DNA from: Vulcanimicrobiota bacterium
GTDB taxonomy: Bacteria; Vulcanimicrobiota; Vulcanimicrobiia; Vulcanimicrobiales; Vulcanimicrobiaceae
Length of the DNA stretch: 64,000 nt
NCBI GenBank assembly: GCA_963726285.1
Contig: CAVSBV010000004.1
Location: 18,659-82,658 of the forward strand
Reading direction: 5' to 3'
The notes under the pieces are model-generated. The model did no database searches. It was not told the DNA's origin and saw nothing but the letters and a program-made list of their open reading frames with translations. Of this stretch, positions 7,100 to 19,271 are shown one piece after another (the first letter of the stretch is position 1; each line of letters opens with the position of its first letter). A program made the position numbers and the translations under genes.

Positions 7100-7558
7100 A
7101 TGGAAGTGATGAAGGCCGAGGACCAGCCGGCGAGCGATGCGGCGCGTACGCTGCTCGACGGCTCCGTACGGGACGGAACGAAGACCGTGCGTGGCGCACG
7201 CCATGCTACGGAATCGATCCAGGCCCGCGTAACGAAGGAAGAGTTCGCCATCGTCGAGCGGCACCAGAAGAACGCCGGCTATGAGTCTCTCGCCGAATAC
7301 GTGCGTGCGGTCTGCGTGGCGCCGAAGGCCGTCGTGAATACGTCGGGAGCCGCCGATTATGCGCCCCTTGCGCCGATTCTCTACCTGTTCACACGTGCAG
7401 TAAACGCGACCGATGCGACGGCGAAAGACGAGGCGCTCGCGAAGGCCCATCGTGCGCTCACGGACTTTGTCTGCGACACGGGTAAGACGCATAAGCGCGA
7501 GGTCGCGGAGCGCGGCGTAGACCCTGAAGATTGGGAACGCGGCGGGCTTCGGCGATGA
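7100..7558 (+). CDS. mobC: MobC/TraJ-like ribbon-helix-helix relaxosome accessory protein
   Basis: 152 aa from ATG 7100, with GAGAGGAGAG 10 nt upstream. IQARVTKEEFAIVERHQKNAGYESLAEYVRAV matches the MobC-type RHH pattern. ATGA overlap with the relaxase start. Confidence 0.6.
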   Translation: MEVMKAEDQPASDAARTLLDGSVRDGTKTVRGARHATESIQARVTKEEFAIVERHQKNAGYESLAEYVRAVCVAPKAVVNTSGAADYAPLAPILYLFTRAVNATDATAKDEALAKAHRALTDFVCDTGKTHKREVAERGVDPEDWERGGLRR

Positions 7559-10500
7559 TTGCGAAGTTCTGCGAGGGTCCGAAGGGAGGCGCGGGGAGCG
7601 CTTCGCTCTCGGTCTATCTGACCGTTTACGCAATCGCGGGCAAGGATGCCACGCCCGAAGAGCGAGAGGCGGCGATCGCCGCGCTCTACGCGGAGGCGGA
7701 GGCGCGAACGGATCGCGGTGCCGGTGCGATTTGGAGACCCGCCGTCGGACATGGAACGAGACCGAGCAGCGTCCTCGTCACGAACGCAAGCTCGTACACG
7801 ACTTTCGATCTCGAAGTAGATTATCTCGCGAGCCTGAACCCCGGCGTGCGTCATTCCTCGATGCACATGGTCCTCTCGTTCCAGACTTCCGAGACGGGCG
7901 GGATGACCGATGAGCGGGCGCATGACGCGGCGCAGGATTGGCTCAAGCTTATGGGCCTAGACGAGCATCTCTCGCAGGTCGTCATTCATCGCGACACAAT
8001 CGTTTACGACCGCGATGCTGACGGGAATATCAAGCTCGACATCGCCGGAAATCCCATCGTCAAAGACGGCAACCTACACGCGCACATCAACGTCTCGACC
8101 GTAGACCCAAAGACGTTGCTCGCGTACGACCGGACGGGCCTCCACAAGAAAATGGCGCGGTGCGCCCGCGAAGTCGAGATCGACCACGAGCTAAACCACG
8201 ACAACGGTCTGTACGTCGTACGCTTCAAGGACGGCAAAAAAGTCGCCCAGGAGGCCTCGCCCGAAGAACTCGCGGCGTGGCGCACGGAGCGTAAGGACGA
8301 ACGCTTGGCGCGTCTTGAGGTCAAAAGCGCCGAAGGTTTCGTGAGGCGGGACAAGGACTTCACTCGGTTCGCCGACTCGACGGTCGCGCCGCGTCTCGCG
8401 CAACGGATCGGCATGGCGCAGGTGCGCGGTCGCACGGCGACCTGGGCCGATGCCCATGCCGAAGCGGCCCGCTACGGATGCATCCTCCAACAGAACGACA
8501 ACGGCGAGATAGTGCTGCGCGACGTCGGCGCCCTTGAAATGAAAGTGAAGCACGCGCGCGAGCGCAACGATCTCCGCGCAAAACTTGAGAATGAGGGTGC
8601 CGAGCGCGATGTCATCGACGAGAAAGTCGCCGAAATGAAGGCCGAGCGCACGAAGGTCGAGGCCGACGAACGCGCGCTCAAGATGACGACCGGAGCTACA
8701 GTGAAACTCGATGCGGTGCTGCGCGTGGATCGACGTGACCTTGGTCCGTTCCTCGAAGTCGACGCGGCCGAGCAGCAACTCATAGTACAGATCGAAAAGG
8801 ACCCGGCGCTCGTGCTGCGCGAGGTGACGTCGAGCAGTTCGACATTCGACCGCAGCGAAATCGATATGTTCATCGCTCGTCGGATCTCCGATCCCGATAC
8901 GATTCAGCGCCTCGGCGACCTCGTGATGCAACACGAAAGCATTCGCATCGTCAATGTCGACGCGCGCTGGCCGGTGATGACGACGACCGAGGTGTTGGCC
9001 GTCGAAGATCGACTGCTCGACGATGCTACGACGCTTGCGCGGCGGGCTTCCGGCATCTCCGCCGAATCGGTCGAAGCCGGTATCGTGCGCTACGAGCGAG
9101 AGATGACCGCAGAGAAGCGCGCGAGCGGCGAGTTCGCTGCGACGCAATCCTTCAAACTGTCTGGCGAGCAAAAGGACGCATTGCGGATGGTGACGCGCGG
9201 ATCGCTGTGCGAACTCGAGGGTCTTCCCGGCACGGGAAAAACTTGCATCATGGCGGCGCTGCGATGCGTGGCCGAGGAAGCGAAAAACCGCCGGGAGATT
9301 CGTGGCGACGTGTTCGGTGTATCGCTCGCGCAGATCGCCGCCGAACGATTGGCTGTCGAAGCGGGCTTCGAGACGGTGAACTGCGCGCGGGCGCGGATCC
9401 TCGAAGAGAACGGGACCGCCGTCGTTCCGTACAACGGGGTCCTAGTCATCGAAGAGGCGTCGATGATTGACAGCCGCATGATGCAGGGCCTCATTCAAAC
9501 CGCGAAGGAGCGCGACACGCTGGTCTACGTCATCCTCGATGACCGGCAGATGAGCAGCATCGACTACGGCCAGTCCAGCAAATTCCTCAAGGACGCGACG
9601 AAGGGCGCCGGCACGTACGGCGAGATGCGCGAGATTCAGCGACAGAAGCGCGAGTGGCATCGCGAAGCCATCTACATGTACGCCAAAGCGTTCAACGAAA
9701 AGGACGAGACCAAGCGAACGGCGCTCATCGAAAAATCTCTGCAGGCGTTCGAGGCTCACGGCGAACTCGTCTTCGAGGCGAAGCGCGACGACGTGATTGA
9801 CCGCGCCGTCGCCGATACGCGCGCGTTCGAAGCCACAGCCGAAAAGAATGGATGGAAGAAAGGCGTGCTGCTTAACGCGCCCGACAACGATCTAGTCCGC
9901 CATCTCGCCGAGGAGAGCCGTCGGCAAAACGGGCTCGAGAAGCGCGGCTTCGTCTTCGAGACGGTGTACGGCGAACGTGAGGTCGCCGTCGGTGATGCCA
10001 TCATGTTCCGCGAGAACAACGCGGGCAAGAAGGGTAGGCTCGGTGTGCTGAACGGAGAGGTCGGCACGGTGCTTGACGTGACGAAGCACGGTATCACTGT
10101 CGAGATAACGGACCCGAAGAACGGTGCGAAGCGCACGGTTTGTTTCGATCCTAAGAAGTACGACACGTACGACCACGCCAACGCCATGACGACGACGAAG
10201 ACGCAGGGCGCGTCAGTCAATGCCAGCGTCGATACGCCGACACGGGCCACGGGCATGCAGCAGATGTTTGTAATGATTTCCCGCGCGATGCACGAGAGCC
10301 GTCACGTCGTCAACGGCATGGAGTTCCAAGACACTCACGCGATGGCGGAGCACTTGTCCAAGAGTTACGAGCGCGCGAAGACGACCTCGCACCACTTCGA
10401 GCATGTCGTGCAGCGAACCGGCGGCAAAGAGACGATGCGAGTGCTCAACATGAGCGAGCAGGCCGAAGCGGCGAACTCGCCGCTCCGTCGCTTGTGGGAA

Positions 10501-11055
10501 GAGGAGCAGAAAGTGCCGGCCGACCTGCTGCGGGCGAAACGAGTGGACGAGGCGCGTGCAACCTATAAGGACCGGCTCGCTGCGCTCGACGCGGACGCGA
10601 CGCTTTCCGTCGAGCAACGCATCGACGCGCGCAAGGACGCGTTCAAGACGATGAGCGCGGGCGTCGCGGGTTTGCGCGAGAAGGCATGGCAGCCGCAGTC
10701 CTATCTCGATTGGCTTCACGAGCGGGAGTATGCGCACGACGTCGCTCGCGAGGTGCAGATGAAGCGCGACCTCGGACGCGAGAAGATCGCGCAGCGCGAA
10801 GCGCAACGGACGACCGACCGTCCGCGCGAAGCGACCTCTTCGCCCGTCGAGACTCGGGAGATGACCATCGCCGAGAAGTTGCGCAACGCGGCCGGCGACA
10901 TAAAAGAAAAGGCCGAACGCGAGCTACGGCGCGCGGGAGAAATCCGCAGGACGCAAGAGGCTCTGCGTTCAGAGTCTGATCCGAAAAAGATCGCAGTCCT
11001 CAACAAAACGCTCGCCGATCTCGGCTACTCTCAGAAGAGAGGCATGAGCCAGTGA
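7555..11055 (+). CDS. traA: TraA-type conjugative relaxase fused to a RecD-like helicase
   Basis: 1166 aa from ATG 7555. The N-terminal relaxase has SVYLTVYA (Tyr) and the His cluster HRDT...NLHAHINVS. The helicase has GLPGTGKT, VLVIEEASMID and TTTKTQGASV. The tail is a charged coiled coil. Confidence 0.9.
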   Translation: MIAKFCEGPKGGAGSASLSVYLTVYAIAGKDATPEEREAAIAALYAEAEARTDRGAGAIWRPAVGHGTRPSSVLVTNASSYTTFDLEVDYLASLNPGVRHSSMHMVLSFQTSETGGMTDERAHDAAQDWLKLMGLDEHLSQVVIHRDTIVYDRDADGNIKLDIAGNPIVKDGNLHAHINVSTVDPKTLLAYDRTGLHKKMARCAREVEIDHELNHDNGLYVVRFKDGKKVAQEASPEELAAWRTERKDERLARLEVKSAEGFVRRDKDFTRFADSTVAPRLAQRIGMAQVRGRTATWADAHAEAARYGCILQQNDNGEIVLRDVGALEMKVKHARERNDLRAKLENEGAERDVIDEKVAEMKAERTKVEADERALKMTTGATVKLDAVLRVDRRDLGPFLEVDAAEQQLIVQIEKDPALVLREVTSSSSTFDRSEIDMFIARRISDPDTIQRLGDLVMQHESIRIVNVDARWPVMTTTEVLAVEDRLLDDATTLARRASGISAESVEAGIVRYEREMTAEKRASGEFAATQSFKLSGEQKDALRMVTRGSLCELEGLPGTGKTCIMAALRCVAEEAKNRREIRGDVFGVSLAQIAAERLAVEAGFETVNCARARILEENGTAVVPYNGVLVIEEASMIDSRMMQGLIQTAKERDTLVYVILDDRQMSSIDYGQSSKFLKDATKGAGTYGEMREIQRQKREWHREAIYMYAKAFNEKDETKRTALIEKSLQAFEAHGELVFEAKRDDVIDRAVADTRAFEATAEKNGWKKGVLLNAPDNDLVRHLAEESRRQNGLEKRGFVFETVYGEREVAVGDAIMFRENNAGKKGRLGVLNGEVGTVLDVTKHGITVEITDPKNGAKRTVCFDPKKYDTYDHANAMTTTKTQGASVNASVDTPTRATGMQQMFVMISRAMHESRHVVNGMEFQDTHAMAEHLSKSYERAKTTSHHFEHVVQRTGGKETMRVLNMSEQAEAANSPLRRLWEEEQKVPADLLRAKRVDEARATYKDRLAALDADATLSVEQRIDARKDAFKTMSAGVAGLREKAWQPQSYLDWLHEREYAHDVAREVQMKRDLGREKIAQREAQRTTDRPREATSSPVETREMTIAEKLRNAAGDIKEKAERELRRAGEIRRTQEALRSESDPKKIAVLNKTLADLGYSQKRGMSQ

Positions 11056-11122: not shown

Positions 11123-12703
11123 ATGCACCAAGACCTCGAACAAGTGCGGAACGACGCACGTCAGGAGAGGGACCCGGCGAAGCGCGCAGCGCTGCTCGCC
11201 GACGAAGCGCGCCTCACCGCCGACGCCAACCTCGAGCGTATCATCGCGGAACGCGAGCGAATTGAAACCGCCCCTCAGAAGCCCGTAGAAGGAAAAGACG
11301 ACCACAAGAAGCGCGAGAGCCACGGCCACCACGAAAAATCGTCTGTGGAGCGTCCTGGAGGCGAACACGAGCCCTCGTGGTATGCCGACGGCCAGCGCGA
11401 AGCGCAGGCGGCCGGGCTCCGCGACCACCACGACGCCGTCGAAAACCAAATCGGCATGGAGTCCGCAATCCACGCGAGCGGGCTGGGCGTGCGCGCGCGC
11501 GGGCCGCAGGAAGACTTCGCACTTCATGCCTATGGCAGCAATGCGCGCACCGTAGCCGAAGCAGAGAGACACACGAAGTGGATCGACGCGACACCGACGT
11601 TCCGCGAAGTCTACCGGACAACGATGCAGCTTCGCGCGCAAGGCCAACACCCGCACCCGAACGCCGTGGCGGACGCTCTTCGCACGGACTATGCAGCGCA
11701 GCTAGGCGGGACGTTCGAGAAGACCGAGCGCGAGACCGGAGCACCGAGTTACAAGCAGGTCGCAGATCTGCGTAAGATGCACGTCGAGCACGCACGTGCT
11801 GGCGGAGCGAAGGCATGGGAGGCGGTCGAGATCGACGAGGTGCTGCACGAGCAAGGCGTCTCGAACGCGACCCCAGGGCGCTTTGACGCGTACGTCGAGC
11901 GCTGGAAGAAGGACGTCGGCTATCAAGAGCCGGCCCGAATCGTCAACGATCGCGATCCGCATCGAACGCCCCAGCCCGACGATGCACTCGCCGAAAAGTA
12001 CGGATTGACGGTCGCCATCGACGCCGACGAGCAGACAATTTCGTACGCGCACAAGCAACGTGGGGTGCAGATGACCGACCGCGGCGATTTTATCACGCTC
12101 CATGACGAGCGCAGCGCCGCCGCGGCTGTCGAACTCGCCGCAAAGAACTTCGCGCAAGACGGAATCTCTCTAGGGTCTCACCTCGCGCCTGAAAAACGCG
12201 ATGCGATTCTCAATGCGGCTGTTGTGCAAGGGGTGAGGGTGATAAATCCCGAGCTTGCAGAACGCTACGAACAGATCGTCGGTGAACGCAAGAACTCGCA
12301 ACAGAAGGCGCAGACGCAATCTGCGAGCCCCACCCTCGAACCCGAACATGGGCGCGATGCGTCCGAAGTCAATGAGCAGATCGCAAAGGACGGACCGGCG
12401 CGGCCGGCCCCTTCGCCGCAGCCGTATCAAGGCGAAAGTCTCGCCGCGCTCCAGTTCGTGCGTCCCGAATCCCTAGGCACGAGCAACGTGCCTGCGGTTC
12501 GCGGCGAACACGCAGAGATCGAGCGCGCGAGCTTCCACGGACCTCGCGTCGTAGGCAAAGCCGAAGTGTCGGACGTCAAGGAACCGAGCGTTGCCGATCG
12601 GCTACGCAATTGCGTGGCCGAAATGCAGTCGCGCTCAGCAGAGCACGCGGAAAAACTCGAACAAGGGATCGCGCAGGGCATTACGCGCGCGATGCATCTG
12701 TGA
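11123..12703 (+). CDS. LPD7-like domain protein of conjugative elements
   Basis: 526 aa with AAGGAG 6 nt upstream. MTDRGDFITLHDERSAAAAVELAAKNFAQDGISLGSHLAPEKRDAILNAAVVQGVRVINPEL fits my recollection of the LPD7 pattern that accompanies relaxases. Confidence 0.5.
   Translation: MHQDLEQVRNDARQERDPAKRAALLADEARLTADANLERIIAERERIETAPQKPVEGKDDHKKRESHGHHEKSSVERPGGEHEPSWYADGQREAQAAGLRDHHDAVENQIGMESAIHASGLGVRARGPQEDFALHAYGSNARTVAEAERHTKWIDATPTFREVYRTTMQLRAQGQHPHPNAVADALRTDYAAQLGGTFEKTERETGAPSYKQVADLRKMHVEHARAGGAKAWEAVEIDEVLHEQGVSNATPGRFDAYVERWKKDVGYQEPARIVNDRDPHRTPQPDDALAEKYGLTVAIDADEQTISYAHKQRGVQMTDRGDFITLHDERSAAAAVELAAKNFAQDGISLGSHLAPEKRDAILNAAVVQGVRVINPELAERYEQIVGERKNSQQKAQTQSASPTLEPEHGRDASEVNEQIAKDGPARPAPSPQPYQGESLAALQFVRPESLGTSNVPAVRGEHAEIERASFHGPRVVGKAEVSDVKEPSVADRLRNCVAEMQSRSAEHAEKLEQGIAQGITRAMHL
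12578..12625 (+). repeat. copy 1 of the KEPxVADRLRNCVAEM module
   Basis: aaggaaccgagcgttgccgatcggctacgcaattgcgtggccgaaatg, near the C-terminus of the 526-aa protein. Confidence 0.8.
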
Positions 12704-13089: not shown

Positions 13090-13110
13090 CACCAGCTACG
13101 AGACAAAGAG

Positions 13111-13149
13111 AAGAGCCCGGCAAAGGATCGCCCGGGCTCTTTCGTTTTC
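13111..13149. terminator. bidirectional rho-independent terminator candidate between convergent operons
   Basis: Perfect 10-bp stem aagagcccgg (13111-13120) / ccgggctctt (13132-13141) followed by tcgtttt. On the other strand it is followed by a T-rich run. Confidence 0.6.
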
Positions 13150-13172: not shown

Positions 13173-13370
13173 CTATTTGTAGCGGTCACGGTTGAACCAC
13201 CACCGCAGTGCGTCTCGCGACGCGAACAGGTCCGTCCATCGGCCGCCGAAGAGAAAGTCAGCTACGATAAGAAAAACGTTCATACCATCGTACCGCCGTA
13301 ACTGCCGACGATTCTCGCCGGGCGTGCGCTCCGCGAGTGCGCGCGATAGTCGATCTTCGTACTCTCCCAT
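13173..13370 (-). CDS. small hypothetical protein, last gene of the 18.7-13.2 kb operon
   Basis: 65 aa. The start lies 3 nt after the stop of the upstream gene. One hydrophobic segment (VFLIVADFLFGG). Confidence 0.4.
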   Translation of the reverse strand: MGEYEDRLSRALAERTPGENRRQLRRYDGMNVFLIVADFLFGGRWTDLFASRDALRWWFNRDRYK

Positions 13371-13373
13371 ACG

Positions 13374-14354
13374 CTACATCTCTCCGAACATGTTGCCGCC
13401 GATGGACGGACCGCCGCCATAACCGCCACCGCCGCGATTCGGGAAGATGTGGCGCATGATGACCACCCCGAAGAACATGAAGATTGCGACGATGATCAGG
13501 AGCACCATGAAGATGCCACGAAACACGTTCTCCCCGACCGACCGGCGGTAGACGCCCGTATAGGGACCGGCGAATTGCCACTCGCCCGTCTGTTTATCGA
13601 GGTCGAGCATCGACGTAAACGACACCGTCTTGCCGACGAGCGCCGCGTAGTCACCGTACTTTGCGGCGCCCTGCGCGAAGACGTCGTACGTAGGCAGCGG
13701 TTCGATGGTGCCGTGCCACTTCACGACCGCGACGTCCTTATCTGCGGGCGTCAGCGCTGCAGAGTCGATCACCGGCAAGAGGTCGAGCAGGCGGACAGAT
13801 GAGAACACGGTCGCGCTTCCCGGCTTGCATGACATCACTGCGTAATTTACCGTACCGAGGGCCTGCGCATCGTAACGAGCAGTTCCGAACTTCGATGGAC
13901 AGATCACCGCATATTGCGCGTAGTCAAGGGCCAGGGCGCTGCGCTGCGACGTGTGTGTCTGCATCACGCCGTTGCTGTCGGTACTTTGCGAGGCCTGCGT
14001 GGTCGAGACGAAGAGCTTAGCTCCGTATTTGTCCACCGAAAGGTGGTCGAAGTCGTCGCAAAGCTGCCGCGCGAACGCGTCTGAACATTTCGTAGCCTGG
14101 TAGATGACATCGGCCGCCGTGTTCGTGCTGAACGCCTGCGGCTTCGCGTCGGGCTTCGTTGATACGTGCATGCCGACCAATTCGGCGACCCCGCCGGCGA
14201 ACACGAGCAAAACGAGCATGGAAAAAGACCACGCCGGGATACGCCACCATGTGCCACCGCGTTGCTTGTCGCGAACGATGCCGATGACGCCACGAATCCA
14301 GAGGACGAATACTGCGATCTCGACGATGAGTATGAGTATTTCCGAAGGCGACAT
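13374..14354 (-). CDS. membrane protein with a Gly-rich C-terminal tail
   Basis: 326 aa with AGGTGG upstream. Two N-terminal TM helices, a ~200-aa extracytoplasmic domain, a C-terminal TM helix (IFMVLLIIVAIFMFFGVVIM), then NRGGGGYGGGPSIGGNMF. Confidence 0.65.
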   Translation of the reverse strand: MSPSEILILIVEIAVFVLWIRGVIGIVRDKQRGGTWWRIPAWSFSMLVLLVFAGGVAELVGMHVSTKPDAKPQAFSTNTAADVIYQATKCSDAFARQLCDDFDHLSVDKYGAKLFVSTTQASQSTDSNGVMQTHTSQRSALALDYAQYAVICPSKFGTARYDAQALGTVNYAVMSCKPGSATVFSSVRLLDLLPVIDSAALTPADKDVAVVKWHGTIEPLPTYDVFAQGAAKYGDYAALVGKTVSFTSMLDLDKQTGEWQFAGPYTGVYRRSVGENVFRGIFMVLLIIVAIFMFFGVVIMRHIFPNRGGGGYGGGPSIGGNMFGEM

Positions 14355-14441
14355 TATTTCACCACCTGCACCGGATTCGGCGTACGCGTGGACTTCGAAT
14401 GCGCAGCAACGACTGCGGCGAGGACTGCGGAGGTTAGCATG

Positions 14442-14813
14442 TTACTGGCCTCCGGCGCGGCCCGTCGCCAGACAGTTCATCATGCGCTGCGCTTGTTCGT
14501 CCGCGGTCCGATCCGCTGTGACGTTGAAAGCGGTTGATGCAACCGTGGATGTCGATGAAGGGGCGCCTCGTGACGATTGGAACAGAAACGCAGCGAATGT
14601 CAGCGCCGTCGAAACGAAGACGTAGAGCGCGATTGCGCAGATGCTGACGAGGAGAAATGCTGGGAGACGCTTCTTGACGTAGGTCCATGCGTCCGCGTCC
14701 TCGGCTTTCTCGAACGAACGCTCGCGCTCGAACCACTCCGCGGAGAAGGGCGTTACGTCCCCGGTGCTGCGTTCGCGGATACGCTCGATCGCGTTCATGT
14801 AGGCGCTGCTCAT
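14442..14813 (-). CDS. membrane protein
   Basis: 123 aa from ATG 14813, with GGAGGA 10 nt upstream. One or two TM helices (LPAFLLVSICAIALYVFVSTALTFAAFLF). Confidence 0.55.
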   Translation of the reverse strand: MSSAYMNAIERIRERSTGDVTPFSAEWFERERSFEKAEDADAWTYVKKRLPAFLLVSICAIALYVFVSTALTFAAFLFQSSRGAPSSTSTVASTAFNVTADRTADEQAQRMMNCLATGRAGGQ

Positions 14814-14814
14814 G

Positions 14815-15288
14815 TTAGTGATTTCCTCCGTCCCAGCCGTTTGCGACCGGATTTGCACCGGCGAGAAGAGCGGTGTCTGTGGCGTTGCCGAGCGCGTGGC
14901 CCGCGGCCGAACCGAACACCCAATCTACGAACTTGCTCGCGCCCTCGACGAAGCGCACCGCAACTGGAAGCGTTTGATTGACACCGCTCGTGAACGAGCT
15001 TTGTGCCTTCGCCTCGGTATTGCGACAGGACAGATAAACCGTCGGCCCTCCGAGGACGAGTACGGCGAGCGCCGCGAGTTTCAAGTAATACATCTTTGTG
15101 TTTGTCCTTTGTGTCTTTGCTACGCGATGCGATGCGTTCGCATCCGTCGATGGATCGATCACATTTTTCAGGTCAAAAGTCAAGTAAAAGACCGTGTTGC
15201 TGGCCTGCATCGCGTCGGGGACGGCGAGCGTGTATGCCGTAAAGCGCGCGTCAATCACGATTCCGCTCCCGATCACCGAGGCTTTCAT
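14815..15288 (-). CDS. hypothetical protein with an internal hydrophobic/signal-like segment
   Basis: 157-aa ORF with high GC3 throughout. An alternative start at ATG 15093 would give MYYLKLAALAVLVLGGPTVYLSC (signal/lipobox-like). It overlaps the upstream gene by 38 nt if the long form is real. Confidence 0.45.
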   Translation of the reverse strand: MKASVIGSGIVIDARFTAYTLAVPDAMQASNTVFYLTFDLKNVIDPSTDANASHRVAKTQRTNTKMYYLKLAALAVLVLGGPTVYLSCRNTEAKAQSSFTSGVNQTLPVAVRFVEGASKFVDWVFGSAAGHALGNATDTALLAGANPVANGWDGGNH

Positions 15289-15487
15289 GGGCCATGTTCG
15301 TTCGGAACGCGAATCTCCAATCGTAGATACAGACCATGAGAGCTGTGACGATAATCCCGATGGTCTCGGGCCATGAGATGCTCGGGTTCGCGTAGACGCA
15401 GATGAGCGCCGCCGGGAGCCCGACGTACGTCAACGCTCGAAACGGCCAAAGGGCTTTTGCCATTTCTTCGAGTCTGTCGCCGGGCAT
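15251..15487 (-). CDS. small two-TM membrane protein
   Basis: 78 aa from ATG 15487, 5 nt after the upstream stop: MPGDRLEEMAKALWPFRALTYVGLPAALICVY...IGIIVTALMVCIY. Confidence 0.45.
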   Translation of the reverse strand: MPGDRLEEMAKALWPFRALTYVGLPAALICVYANPSISWPETIGIIVTALMVCIYDWRFAFRTNMAHESLGDRERNRD

Positions 15488-15492
15488 CGCGC

Positions 15493-16569
15493 TCACCAGT
15501 TGATGGAGGGCGCGATGGAACCCGGAGCGGGCGTCGGCAGCGTGACCGAAAGGGTCGGACTGGGAACGAACGGATTGATGGTGTAGCCCGGTCCGCGAGC
15601 GTACACGGACCCCGTAGCCGCGTTCGTGCTGACCACCTGGGCGTTGAGCGTATCCGTGCCCGTGCCCGTATAGCTTACGGTCTGATTGCACGCTGGCCAC
15701 GAATAGATCATCCAATACGACGACGACGGATTCGTCGACGCGCACGTCGTTCCAGAACCCGGGCCATCCTGCATCGAAAGCGTCGCCGTCGTGTTTGATG
15801 CCGTGGCGATGACGACGCCGTACTGATCGCCGTTTCCGTCTTGGTATGCTTCGGAGCAGTTGCCGATGTCGGAACCATTTGGTTGCGACGGGTTGCCGCA
15901 GCCCGAATAATCGCTCGCCGCTCCGACGATCTGATAGCCCTCCGCATCGTATGCCGCGAGCGAAAGCGTGCCGCTTCCGCCAGTGCCCGGCGTGAACACC
16001 CCGGATTCAGTCAGTTGGAAACCGTACGGAATGCCGCCGAGCGAAAGTTGAAGCGTATTCGCGTTGCCGATATTCCCGCTCGTCGAAAAGCCGTAACCGC
16101 TCGCATAGTCAAGCAAATTGCTGCTGAGAGCCGGCCCCGTACCATTCGCACCGGCGTACGTCGTCATGAGCGCTTCGAACGCCGTGTTCGTGAGGTATGG
16201 AAAGAAGATGCTCTCGACGCAGTATGTCGCGCCGTTGCTTTGCGAACAGCCCGGGGCGGTCGGCGTGAGGTTCCATGCGATGAGGCTGCCGTACGGCGTG
16301 TACGTCGTGCCGGGTGCTGGAAGCTGGCCGTTACTCATCGGCGCGGTCAGAATCTGCAACGTCGCCGATTCAGTCGCCGGCGAAATGTATGCGGGACGCT
16401 TGAGGGCGCCCGAAGACGACGATGCTTTCGATGGTATTTTGATGGTCAGCGTCTTCGTCGAGCCCGAAGTTTTCGCGCTCGATGTCGGAGGAACCGAGGG
16501 AGCCCCGCTGCCTCCAGAGCACCCCGCGATGAGAGCCGCGAACGACACGATTGCGAGATAGTGCTTCAT
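15493..16569 (-). CDS. secreted lipoprotein, function unknown
   Basis: 358 aa. MKHYLAIVSFAALIAGC lipobox, a Ser/Gly/Pro linker, then a Thr/Ser/Gly/Asn-rich beta-type body. ATGA overlap with the upstream gene. Confidence 0.7.
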   Translation of the reverse strand: MKHYLAIVSFAALIAGCSGGSGAPSVPPTSSAKTSGSTKTLTIKIPSKASSSSGALKRPAYISPATESATLQILTAPMSNGQLPAPGTTYTPYGSLIAWNLTPTAPGCSQSNGATYCVESIFFPYLTNTAFEALMTTYAGANGTGPALSSNLLDYASGYGFSTSGNIGNANTLQLSLGGIPYGFQLTESGVFTPGTGGSGTLSLAAYDAEGYQIVGAASDYSGCGNPSQPNGSDIGNCSEAYQDGNGDQYGVVIATASNTTATLSMQDGPGSGTTCASTNPSSSYWMIYSWPACNQTVSYTGTGTDTLNAQVVSTNAATGSVYARGPGYTINPFVPSPTLSVTLPTPAPGSIAPSINW

Positions 16570-17057
16570 GGCTTCCGTCCTTTCTCGTTCGGAACGACGA
16601 CTGTCGTTGTGTTGATAATTTCCAATTGCGCCGAATTACCGAAGCTGTCCGAGACCGTGGCATAGCAGGTTCCACCGTTCACGCTCGATCCTAAAATTGT
16701 CGAGTTCAAAATCGCGTAAGTCGCGACGCCCGAGCATCCCGATGCGGTGAATGCGCCGCTGTATCCGGGGTCCGAAATCGTCGCCGTGAAGGTTGCCGGC
16801 GCAGGCGCACCTGCGGCCGTCTGGTTCAAGTACACCACTGACCGAGAAATCGAGATCGGTCCGGGCGTCGGGACGCTCGTTGGCAAAGGGCCGGGTGTCG
16901 GTGAGTTTGTAGGCTGCGGTGAAGGCGACGATGTCGGTGCGCTGGTCGGATCGACGTTTGGCGTGATCGCGGTCGCGCCGGGAGCGAATGGCGACATGCC
17001 GCCGCCGCTGCACGCCGTGAGCGAAAGGATAGCGAAAAGCACGAAATGTTTACGCAT
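16566..17057 (-). CDS. secreted lipoprotein, function unknown
   Basis: 163 aa from ATG 17057 (GAGG upstream). MRKHFVLFAILSLTAC lipobox, then a Pro/Thr/Ser linker. Confidence 0.65.
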   Translation of the reverse strand: MRKHFVLFAILSLTACSGGGMSPFAPGATAITPNVDPTSAPTSSPSPQPTNSPTPGPLPTSVPTPGPISISRSVVYLNQTAAGAPAPATFTATISDPGYSGAFTASGCSGVATYAILNSTILGSSVNGGTCYATVSDSFGNSAQLEIINTTTVVVPNEKGRKP

Positions 17058-17379
17058 CTTCAACCTCGCGATCTACGCGGATGCAGCGCTTGTGTAGCCC
17101 GTGGACCTTTAGTGTTCGGGGAAAGTGTGGATTGAACGGGGCGATCTCGATGAGCGCCTCTAATCCGTCGTTGGCGCAACCGACGCGAAACGTCGCTTCG
17201 CCCTTCTCAATATCGTAGAGGGTGATCGTGCCGTTCGGATTGTAAGTCACTGCGCCGCCCGGCGACGTACTAGTCGGCGTCGCCCGCGGATTTTGCGGCA
17301 CGTGAGACTCGCACGCCGTCGAAGACATCAGCGCGAACAGCGCAGCGGCGATCTGCCTAAGCGCCAGCATTTGTTTCAT
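17050..17379 (-). CDS. small lipoprotein, function unknown
   Basis: 109 aa from ATG 17379 (ATGA overlap with the upstream stop). MKQMLALRQIAAALFALMSSTAC lipobox. Confidence 0.6.
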   Translation of the reverse strand: MKQMLALRQIAAALFALMSSTACESHVPQNPRATPTSTSPGGAVTYNPNGTITLYDIEKGEATFRVGCANDGLEALIEIAPFNPHFPRTLKVHGLHKRCIRVDREVEDA

Positions 17380-18131
17380 GGTTTGCCACCAGTCAATGGA
17401 ATCGAAGAGAAGTCTTGGCACGCCTTTATCGATGATGCGGAAACGTCGGGAGCGAACCAGATGTTGTTGAGCGACGACGTGCTGGCGTTGAGCATTCCGT
17501 ATTGCGAGACGAGCAACGAGCAATGTGCGTACTCGCGCGCGACGACGCGCTGGCCCGCGAGCCGACCGAACCACGTCGCCGCGCCCACGAGATGTGTGCC
17601 GGCTTCGAGGTAGTCGTAGCTCACCCGAGTCGCGACGGGCGCGCGATGCAGTGTGCTCGCGATGATCGCGTCCCACGCAAGACCACCGGCTACGAGTGTC
17701 GGCAAACCGCCGTGCGCACTAACCGCCGCCAGAGGGTCAATCTCAAATGAGTGGGGAGCGCCGAAGGAAAACGTGACGACGTTCGCCGGAACGTATGTCG
17801 GCGGAGCCGACCAACACTCTTGCATGCCCTGCCACGTTGTGCATCCTGTTTCGAGCGGGTGGACTGCATGCGTCCAGAGATCGGCGTACTGCGCGCGCGA
17901 GCCACGAAGCCCCACCGCCGTAATCACGCCATCTAGAAACTGCGTGCCGAGCTTCATGTAGAATGCGCGGCGTTCGACGGGATCGCGCGGCACGAAAGCG
18001 ATTCGACCGCAAAATACGCGATGCTTGCACGGGTCTTCCGGCCCCTTCGCCGAGATGTACGAAACGGTCGATGAAGGGGCGGGTGACGGCGTAGCGGTAA
18101 TTGCCGCGGCCGCTATGATTGCGCCCAGCAC
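17376..18131 (-). CDS. exported protein, function unknown
   Basis: 251 aa if started at GTG 18131 (TAGTG overlap with the upstream stop), giving VLGAIIAAAAITATPSP as a signal/anchor. The Arg-rich extension of the 280-aa ORF overlaps the upstream gene. Confidence 0.55.
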   Translation of the reverse strand: MLGAIIAAAAITATPSPAPSSTVSYISAKGPEDPCKHRVFCGRIAFVPRDPVERRAFYMKLGTQFLDGVITAVGLRGSRAQYADLWTHAVHPLETGCTTWQGMQECWSAPPTYVPANVVTFSFGAPHSFEIDPLAAVSAHGGLPTLVAGGLAWDAIIASTLHRAPVATRVSYDYLEAGTHLVGAATWFGRLAGQRVVAREYAHCSLLVSQYGMLNASTSSLNNIWFAPDVSASSIKACQDFSSIPLTGGKP

Positions 18132-18742
18132 TATTTCGGAAACTCTGTGTTGGCGGCGTTTTCGAGTTCGATTACGCCGTGCGCAGCGTTGCCGCCGGCG
18201 CGGTATCCGCACGGCCAACGGCGTGTGAGTTCATACCACGCATACGAAATCACGAGGTTCTCACCGACGTACGCGGCGGATGATTGGGAACCGAAGACGC
18301 GGATGCCGATGCTGCCGTGTCGAACGGCGTTACCTACCGACAGCCCGTTTGCAACGTCAGAGAGGCCGTCGAAACCGAGCGCGGCCTTATCGGGACACGC
18401 ATGCGACTTCGAGCCAATCTGCTCGACGTTTTGCGCAGCATCGTACGTCCACGACGTCGATCCGTTGCGACCGTCAAATGCGGCATTCGGATCGCCGCCG
18501 ACTGCCCACGAGAATTTCCATGGCGAGAACGGCTTCGGCGACGGGGTGACGAGGGCGCGGATCGTCGCTGCGTCAAACGCGAGGCCCGCGGGAAGCTGCG
18601 TGCCGGCTTGCGGTAACGAGCCGCTCGGCATCGAGACGTTCCCGAGCGTGGAGGTTACGGTTTGCGGAGGTAGCTGTACCGGCGTCGGTGAGGGAGAAGG
18701 CGATACTATTACGATCGCTGCGAGTGCAAAGGAAGCGAACAT
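18131..18742 (-). CDS. exported protein, first gene of the operon, function unknown
   Basis: 203 aa. Hydrophobic N-terminus MFASFALAAIVIVSPSPSP with a G-rich SD-like run upstream. Confidence 0.6.
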   Translation of the reverse strand: MFASFALAAIVIVSPSPSPTPVQLPPQTVTSTLGNVSMPSGSLPQAGTQLPAGLAFDAATIRALVTPSPKPFSPWKFSWAVGGDPNAAFDGRNGSTSWTYDAAQNVEQIGSKSHACPDKAALGFDGLSDVANGLSVGNAVRHGSIGIRVFGSQSSAAYVGENLVISYAWYELTRRWPCGYRAGGNAAHGVIELENAANTEFPK

Positions 18743-19094
18743 TATTCGTCGCCCCCGCCGACGCCGATGTTACAGACGCCGACGAAGTCCCCGCTGATAT
18801 CGGATGTGAATGGAGCCATGCTCGAGACGCTACCCCGCGATTGTGAAAAGAGCCGGCCGTCGCGTCGTAGCGACCTCCGCTTGCTGCTCTCTACGCGGAG
18901 CGGTGCGGCCCGCGAACTTGGGCGCGCATATTCGTTTAGTAATTGCGGCGAACGGGTCGCCGCGCTTCGTGAGTCTAGTTTACGGGATCATTGCGATGGA
19001 TCGCAACCTGCGGATCGATACTTTAACGCATTGCCACGCATCGTTGCGCAGCGGTCGTGCTATATTTCGATCCGATTATGACTGCGAAAAGTAA

Positions 19095-19271
19095 ATCGGC
19101 GAAGGGGGCCGGGCGAAGAGCATCATCCTCGATTCCGAGACCGACGCGATGCTGGACGAACTCGTTGGTGTGCTCTATATGCCAAGAGAAAGACGTGCGG
19201 CTCTCAGCCGCTCCGAGGTCGTGCGGCGACTCATCCGCGACGCGCACGGGAACGTGGCCCGCAAGAGGTAA
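19095..19271 (+). other. ribbon-helix-helix (CopG/antitoxin-like) reading frame without a canonical start codon
   Basis: The frame after TAA 19092-19094 reads IGEGGRAKSIILDSETDAMLDELVGVLYMPRERRAALSRSEVVRRLIRDAHGNVARKR, stop 19269-19271. The first ATG/GTG/TTG (at MLDEL) falls after the predicted beta-strand. Confidence 0.3.

Follow-up and report, generated by a model that had tools for sequence, protein, structure and literature searches.

Sequence comparisons suggest, with modest confidence, that an operon on the minus strand of a 64,000-nucleotide stretch of Vulcanimicrobiota DNA (contig CAVSBV010000004.1, positions 18,659 to 82,658; the whole stretch is called the window below) encodes accessory envelope proteins carried as cargo by a family of mobilisable elements and is not a mating pore. 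The element that carries the operon has a relaxase, a type IV coupling protein (T4CP) and a NikA-like protein in a genome that contains no VirB4, which are features of a mobilisable element. The window lies on a 108-kb contig of a 3.2-Mb genome, 92.6% complete, from an uncultured member of Candidatus Baltobacteraceae (now Vulcanimicrobiaceae, Eremiobacterota). We propose that the core of the operon is formed by three genes, O1, O4 and O5, in that order, with O4 and O5 as predicted lipoproteins held on Pro/Thr/Ser-rich linkers, and that this triad may represent one lineage, carried on elements, of a cell-envelope cassette native to the bacterial family and heavily expanded there. The other genes, O2, O3 and O6 to O10, would be strain-specific membrane or exported proteins added in this copy.

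Between 13173 and 18742 the minus strand carries 11 consecutive, translationally coupled open reading frames (ORFs), named O1 to O10 and O8b, which constitute one operon. O1 and O2 meet in TAGTG at 18131, ATGA joins O2 to O3 (17376-17379) and O4 to O5 (16566-16569), O3 and O4 overlap by 8 nt (17050-17057), and 5 nt separate O5 from O6 (15487/15493). O7 overlaps O6 by 38 nt if the ATG at 15288 is used and otherwise starts later, at the ATG at 15093. TAACATG marks both the O7/O8 (14813/14815) and the O8/O8b (14440/14442) junctions, O8b passes into O9 through TAATG at 14354, and O9 and O10 are 3 nt apart (13370/13374). A first-pass annotation made from the letters of the window had described this tightly coupled chain, and every junction that it listed is present in the sequence, but its count of ten genes missed O8b, a 28-amino-acid (aa) frame between O8 and O9. 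Third-position GC (GC3) is 0.66-0.78 in all annotated frames of the operon and equals the values of the relaxase and T4CP genes. Just 3' of O10 the operon closes with an intrinsic-terminator-like hairpin (GAGCCCGG...CCGGGCUC) and a U-rich run after it; the hairpin (13111-13141) has a folding energy of -36.4 kcal/mol (z = -3.55), and 0 of 200 shuffled sequences fold as well.

The predicted products are mostly of envelope type and belong to no named family. Pfam, PHROGs, NCBIfam and PADLOC gave no match for the ten ORFs scanned (O8b was left out), in agreement with the earlier description of these proteins as unrecognisable. Three clear lipoboxes had been proposed, and O3, O4 and O5 do pass a rule of the PROSITE PS51257 type, at residues 23, 16 and 17, respectively. 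Hydrophobicity likewise agrees with the membrane segments assigned to O6 to O9, including the C-terminal helix of O9 with the GGGGYGGG sequence that follows it. The claim that every product is exported is borne out by envelope-type features in general but not by O10, for which neither an export signal nor a membrane segment is convincing, and the N-terminal signals attributed to the set are not classical signal peptides in O1 and O2, each of which begins with a short uncharged hydrophobic stretch.

The evidence that the triad is the core of the operon comes from its recurrence. The gene order O1→O4→O5 is found in seven loci, the window included: four relaxase/T4CP elements (the window, L021/L022, L023/L024 and G205), one contig bearing a type IV secretion system (T4SS) in genome G267, and two chromosomal sites, in G250 and G367. 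In L021 and L023 an O1-type gene belongs to a coupled operon whose small genes are unannotated and is followed by O4-type and O5-type lipoprotein genes. O4 of the window shares 44% identity with its counterpart in L023 and 33% with that in L021; the corresponding values for O5 are 40-41% (L023) and 19-24% (L021, G205 and G267). In the three sister elements, as in the window, the operon converges on an LPD7 gene and a relaxase gene, and G205 additionally has ParA, a small protein and a T4CP past the relaxase. A divergent ribbon-helix-helix (RHH) gene precedes the operon in L021, L023 and G205. The arrangement of RHH gene, envelope operon, LPD7 gene, relaxase, NikA-like protein, ParA and T4CP is a recurrent layout in the phylum. 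SLT lytic transglycosylase genes are present in the L021 and G205 sister operons, and a prepilin-type protein in L021; the window operon has neither. On the G267 contig, which is 68 kb long, the triad is accompanied by a complete VirB-type T4SS (VirD4, VirB11, VirB4, VirB8, VirB10 and VirB9), and an SLT-like ORF upstream of the triad is without a Pfam match. The G250 and G367 triads sit among ordinary chromosomal genes with no transfer genes nearby, and the O1-type gene of G363 is a chromosomal singleton.

The remainder of the operon behaves differently. In a relaxed BLAST comparison with the sister-operon proteins, O2, O3 and O6 to O10 had no counterpart (none below E 0.01), and no relative of O3 was found in related genomes. 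The first-pass annotation had proposed looking for the ten genes as a block co-occurring with transfer genes; the ten-gene block is conserved nowhere, and O1, O4 and O5 alone recur. Of the two interpretations offered there, lineage-specific cargo fits this pattern better than a novel apparatus.

Judged by profile searches, O4 and O5 of the window are members, carried on an element, of a large native family of envelope proteins that is mostly chromosomal, because O4 has numerous paralogues in this genome, the O4→O5 pair is repeated on the chromosome and O5 reaches a high copy number. With a profile of the O4 C-terminal domain, at least 8 paralogues were identified in this genome, and in nearly all cases the domain occupies the extreme C-terminus. 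The order O4→O5 is repeated in three chromosomal clusters; an SLT gene stands immediately before the C3 cluster and an NlpC/P60 gene before the C5 cluster. The O5 profile found up to 21 copies per genome and was represented in 20 of the 22 Baltobacteraceae genomes tested, sometimes in tandem arrays, including arrays of six; Vgb-lyase-family β-propellers form the end of several long members. Homologues scattered singly in core genomes had been named as a finding that would count against the first-pass description. Homologues do occur in core genomes, but local synteny is kept, in the form of the O4→O5 pairs. A tree of 13 O5-type N-terminal regions placed the four relaxase/T4CP-element copies together, with weak support (76/80), and apart from the chromosomal copies of this genome, while the G267 copies grouped with a chromosomal G250 gene. 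Since the element copies stand apart, the cassette would have travelled with the element family for some time, which suggests a long association and not a recent capture from the present host.

Our searches also bear on whether the operon could itself be a transfer machine. The first-pass annotation had seen no ATPase, VirB4 or pilin in it, and both the Pfam scan of ten products and the genome searches for VirB4 agree. PF03135 and TIGR00929 found nothing in this genome, where AAA_10 gave a weak match only, on another contig. No homologue of VirB6, VirB8, VirB9 or VirB10 was detected with Pfam or NCBIfam among the ten scanned products; the same search recognises VirB8, TrbI and CagX in G267. 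The Pfam scan likewise found no VirB1-like lytic transglycosylase in the window operon. VirB4 (TIGR00929) is present in 50 of the 385 genomes of the class, so helper systems are available for mobilisable elements. Comparable backbones occur that lack the operon. An element in genome G006 (L112:545-13682, G006:C1) comprises an integrase, an excisionase, a T4CP, a membrane protein, ParA, a small gene in the position of MobC and a relaxase, and AbiE-type and other defence genes directly follow the relaxase; in a second, operon-free element of G205 a type I restriction system takes this place. Because the G006 backbone has defence genes there, the site downstream of the relaxase is shown to be a hot-spot for cargo. 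A search for related loci seeded with the relaxase gave no match. The operon-free backbones, the helper T4SSs of the class, the G267 triad beside a complete T4SS and the chromosomal triads together argue that the operon is not a transfer machine.

How such cargo might work can be outlined from the predicted features of its products. They would be exported through Sec, and O3 to O5 would be acylated, with the lipid holding them in a diderm envelope. A typical diderm envelope is found in the sole cultured member of the phylum (PMC9758169), and the homologues of VirB9 and VirB10 that occur in this bacterial family are in line with this envelope type. The triad may work where peptidoglycan and outer membrane meet, a placement that we propose because SLT or NlpC/P60 hydrolases are encoded at the start of sister cassettes, elsewhere within them or in fusion to their products. 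The outcome would be an altered display on or under the surface of the carrier cell, for which adhesion, exclusion and receptor masking are possible pay-offs.

Several observations weigh against the cargo reading. Seven of the 11 genes (O3, O6, O7, O8, O8b, O9 and O10) are orphans without any relative, so that most of the operon is explained by position alone. The structure models of O1 and O5 are mostly of low confidence and are weak evidence because their alignments are shallow (6 and 12 sequences). In addition, four of the seven triad loci adjoin a relaxase, a fifth shares its contig with a T4SS, and the association with lytic transglycosylases is regular, all of which would also fit a role in transfer. 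The main rival explanation accordingly holds that the triad, together with an SLT protein where one is present, aids conjugation by a helper T4SS, as an adhesin or stabiliser of mating contacts, as a VirB1-like aid to wall opening or as a surface-exclusion factor, and that it is kept because it improves the spread of the element itself. We regard this as possible, if rather unlikely. Beyond the proximity to transfer genes, it would account for the constant position and RHH control in four elements, for the SLT genes within or fused to sister operons, for the prepilin-type protein of L021 and for the separate grouping of element-borne O5 copies, and there is a precedent in the plasmid-encoded Ig-like proteins required for IncHI conjugation (PMC6764697, PMC8730810). 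It has to contend, however, with related relaxase/T4CP backbones that entirely lack the operon, with triads at chromosomal sites that have no neighbouring transfer genes, with a lipoprotein family that is mostly chromosomal, and with a window operon that contains neither an SLT nor a pilin-like gene. A more explicit version, which we consider less probable still, would make the triad, with or without a lytic transglycosylase, an Eremiobacterota-specific transfer-accessory module in which the secreted O1 domain and the two lipoproteins open the wall and make or stabilise contact, which would improve the use of helper T4SSs by elements with no more than a relaxase and a coupling protein, the chromosomal copies being its source or its remnants.

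The hydrolase association could also be read without reference to transfer, with the O4/O5-type lipoproteins and the O1 domain as putative partners or regulators of peptidoglycan hydrolases, by analogy with the lipoproteins that activate wall enzymes in E. coli; on this view the copy on the element would tune wall turnover and not surface display. The SLT or NlpC/P60 gene directly before two chromosomal O4→O5 clusters of this genome and the fusion of the O1 domain to SLT in two proteins, P0009 and P0014, are consistent with such a complex. Because the window operon contains no recognisable hydrolase, however, and because Vgb-lyase-family β-propeller heads on many O5-type proteins suggest ligand binding or another enzymatic activity, we think it distinctly improbable. 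Least credible, and close to refuted, is the idea that the operon forms a new VirB4-free mating pore, a channel for the relaxase and T4CP of the element. A relaxase and a T4CP without any VirB4 in a nearly complete genome, and an operon in which every product but O10 looks envelope-type, might seem to call for such a channel, but sister backbones dispense with the operon, the VirB4-type T4SSs of other class genomes could serve as helpers, the G267 triad and a complete VirB-type T4SS lie on one contig, and the operon encodes neither an ATPase nor a polytopic VirB6-like protein and has no conserved gene set past the triad. The reading as accessory envelope cargo is therefore the one that we favour.

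Within the triad, O1 is probably a secreted, helical and disulfide-bonded protein, as its sequence and that of its relatives would indicate. An exhaustive HMMER search of 1.8 billion representative proteins found 16 relatives, whose common features are the C-terminal domain (about 90 residues), its two invariant cysteines and the terminal sequence ...NAAxTEFP[RK]; in O1 itself both cysteines are present and the terminus reads ...NAANTEFPK. In P0009 and P0014 the domain is joined to the SLT lytic transglycosylase through a Pro-rich linker. The domain was modelled as a three-helix bundle (pLDDT 70-85), and neither a PDB fold search with the model nor a PDB sequence-profile search with the family gave a match. 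Residues 37-153 of O5 were modelled as a seven-strand β-sandwich (pLDDT 65-81), the remainder being β-rich and of low confidence; the fold search against PDB returned generic Ig-like matches that were not significant and no FimA or Mfa structure. Matches to metabolic enzymes, which according to the first-pass annotation would speak against its description, were absent from the fold searches of both models. Searches of PLSDB plasmids by tblastn with O5 and O1 were also without a match. A type V pilus (FimA/Mfa) was considered and rejected; it has the lipoprotein-precursor feature alone in common with these proteins, with no Pfam family match and no PDB fold match. With regard to the O4-type domain (window 16566-16850, and the own-genome matches described above), relatives in other genomes often end in ..T-T-T-G-G-[V/I]-[I/V]-[H/S/Q], and such a conserved terminal β-sandwich could be a sorting signal.

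O2 has a narrow distribution. Its conserved motifs are VPRDPxERRAF...DG and CQxF, and homologues with 29-37% identity occur in G040 and G019, the latter a singleton recorded as a hypothetical protein of Candidatus Baltobacteraceae. The G040 homologue (L014:5914-12099, G040:C213) lies inside a small integrative element, next to an integrase, a MerR-like gene, a winged-helix protein, ParA and a protein with a long Ala-rich hydrophobic N-terminus. A word-seeded search of 5.8 billion proteins with O2 returned the query alone, and the O2 profile, in the same kind of search, one Baltobacteraceae protein besides the query; O2 had no Pfam match, and a sequence-profile search of PDB with the O2 family was also empty. 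Comparison of the O1 and O2 N-termini (window 18680-18742 and 18070-18131) with those of relatives (P0004-P0018; L015:8949-9707) revealed a common pattern of M-[I/L/F]-A, about 10-12 uncharged hydrophobic residues with no basic ones, and then [S/T]-P-[S/T]-P-x-P; in O1 and O2 the hydrophobic start runs straight into SPSPSP or TPSPAP. This type of N-terminus may serve as an export or anchor signal peculiar to the lineage, and since homologues begin alike, the start codons of O1 and O2 are supported.

Among the orphans, GC3 in the O7 frame climbs from about 15350 downstream, which slightly favours the longer form of the protein. With O9, a word-seeded search of 5.8 billion proteins found the query alone, and tblastn against phage records gave no match. 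A filamentous-phage module was rejected as a candidate: the layout of O9 is pIII-like, but there is no Zot/pI ATPase and no PHROG match below E 0.01. The properties of all products are collected in Table 1.

Table 1. Coordinates and properties of the operon genes, neighbouring features and related lipoprotein clusters (window positions unless a contig is named)
Feature	Position	Strand	Properties or basis of assignment
O1, 203 aa	18131..18742	-	ORF; hydrophobic uncharged N-terminus, Pro/Ser/Thr linker, ~90-aa C-terminal domain
O2, 251 aa	17376..18131	-	GTG start overlapping O1 stop; predicted secreted or anchored; six cysteines
O3, 109 aa, predicted lipoprotein, orphan	17050..17379	-	lipobox ..SSTAC
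O4, 163 aa, predicted lipoprotein	16566..17057	-	lipobox, Pro/Thr/Ser-rich linker, ~90-aa C-terminal domain (..SDPGYSGAFTA..C..)
O5, 358 aa, predicted lipoprotein	15493..16569	-	predicted β-sandwich N-terminal domain; motif R-[RT]-P-x-Y-I-S-P-x-T
O6, 78 aa, small membrane protein, orphan	15251..15487	-	hydrophobicity
O7, 157 aa, orphan	14815..15288	-	one hydrophobic segment; start at 15093 would give 92 aa
O8, 123 aa, orphan	14442..14813	-	charged N-terminus, one membrane helix; GGAGGA upstream of start
O8b, 28 aa	14354..14440	-	hydrophobic N-terminus; GGAGG Shine-Dalgarno 9 nt upstream; GC3 0.68
O9, 326 aa, orphan	13374..14354	-	two N-terminal membrane helices, ~215-aa four-cysteine domain, C-terminal helix, Gly-rich tail
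O10, 65 aa, orphan	13173..13370	-	basic; without clear export signal
Intrinsic-terminator-like hairpin and U-rich run	13098..13141	-	folding energy
Divergent RHH regulator gene	18810..19271	+	translation; in-frame TAA at 19092-19094; RHH fold 19095-19271
MobA/VirD2-type relaxase with AAA_30 helicase domain	7531-11055	+	convergent with operon
LPD7-domain protein	11123-12703	+	convergent with operon
O5-type lipoprotein clusters	own genome C3:773869-778998; C5:734217-737568; C1:41050-45265; also G216:C27:3135-12871		

The operon is probably governed by the divergent RHH regulator encoded next to O1. The 94-codon ORF 18810-19094 and the RHH fold share one frame and are parted by a single TAA, and the split regulator scores 16.2 bits (E 0.011) against the RHH_1 Pfam family, for which the cut-off is 20.5 bits. 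Its strand-helix-helix segment aligns with the regulators located divergently upstream of the L021, L023 and G205 operons; the intact counterparts in sister elements are 98-141 aa long. Because the gene is interrupted by an in-frame TAA, the operon may be de-repressed here. The intergenic region between regulator and operon has repeats, none of them distinctive.

The operon had been placed between a transfer module and a defence island, and this holds, with the relaxase and LPD7 genes on one side and, past the RHH gene at higher coordinates, a defence island with a type I restriction-modification system on the other. Beyond the relaxase lie the NikA-like accessory gene and then, divergently, genes for a basic protein, ParA, two small membrane proteins and the T4CP, a 744-aa protein with a TraG-D_C domain. 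No integrase was found in the window, and visual inspection of the ORFs upstream of it, for which no Pfam scan was made, revealed none either. Across the transfer module, about 1.7 kb before the start of the window (own genome C4:16121-16933), there is a gene for a lipoprotein built like O4, with a lipobox (LLAAC-SGGGGG), a Pro/Ser/Thr linker and a small C-terminal domain; its BLAST similarity to O4 is not significant. An unusual relaxase occurs in the T4SS element of G267, where a 1721-aa fusion protein (L118:4811-9973; G267:C11:36810-41972) combines a MobA/MobL relaxase, LPD7, an AAA_30 helicase and a telomere-resolvase (ResT/TelK) catalytic domain (E 2e-43).

Integrative mobilisable elements are a class that encodes a relaxase and a coupling protein and has no mating-pair-formation genes. 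The backbone described here fits this known class of relaxase and T4CP mobilisable elements: it has a MobA/VirD2-type relaxase with a helicase, a NikA-like protein, an operon of ParA and T4CP, no VirB4, and cargo downstream of the relaxase. The class is defined by its transfer genes, however, and is silent on envelope operons, and the window differs in that no integrase was found in it. VirB1 of Agrobacterium-type T4SSs consists of an SLT domain and a secreted C-terminal part, VirB1*. P0009 and P0014 have a similar layout, SLT domain, Pro-rich linker and O1 domain, and elsewhere the O1 domain is a separate, predicted secreted protein; the likeness is one of domain layout, the window O1 has no SLT part, and O1-type genes are also chromosomal. 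In E. coli, the lipoproteins LpoA, LpoB and NlpI are partners of peptidoglycan enzymes. The O4→O5 clusters preceded by SLT or NlpC/P60 genes present a comparable link between lipoproteins and wall enzymes, but there is no homology, and the resemblance is in gene neighbourhood alone. Finally, Ig-like (Big-domain) proteins of IncHI, IncA/C and IncP2 plasmids are needed for conjugation (PMC6764697, PMC8730810). Like these, the products discussed here would be exported and are encoded on a transfer element outside the core transfer genes, and O5 has a predicted β-sandwich. In contrast to those very large secreted proteins, however, O4 and O5 are predicted lipoproteins of 163-358 aa with no Pfam match to a Big domain, and their family is mainly chromosomal. 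The likeness to Ig-like plasmid proteins, to VirB1/VirB1* and to Lpo-type partners is analogy only; where a defining feature of these systems could be judged clearly, it was absent here.

Exported accessory proteins on a transfer element are already familiar; the protein families themselves are undescribed. Mobile elements of Eremiobacterota (Vulcanimicrobiota) have received almost no study, and a literature search turned up no dedicated paper on them. An undiscovered mating machine at this locus has become less likely, and three families absent from the libraries have been defined, namely, the two-cysteine helical domain of O1, the C-terminal domain of O4 and the lipoprotein stalk of O5. Few envelope families in these genomes are as expanded as the O5-type lipoproteins, whose genes are sometimes linked with genes for wall hydrolases, and this expansion and linkage make them a sensible first target for work on the surface of this abundant soil phylum.

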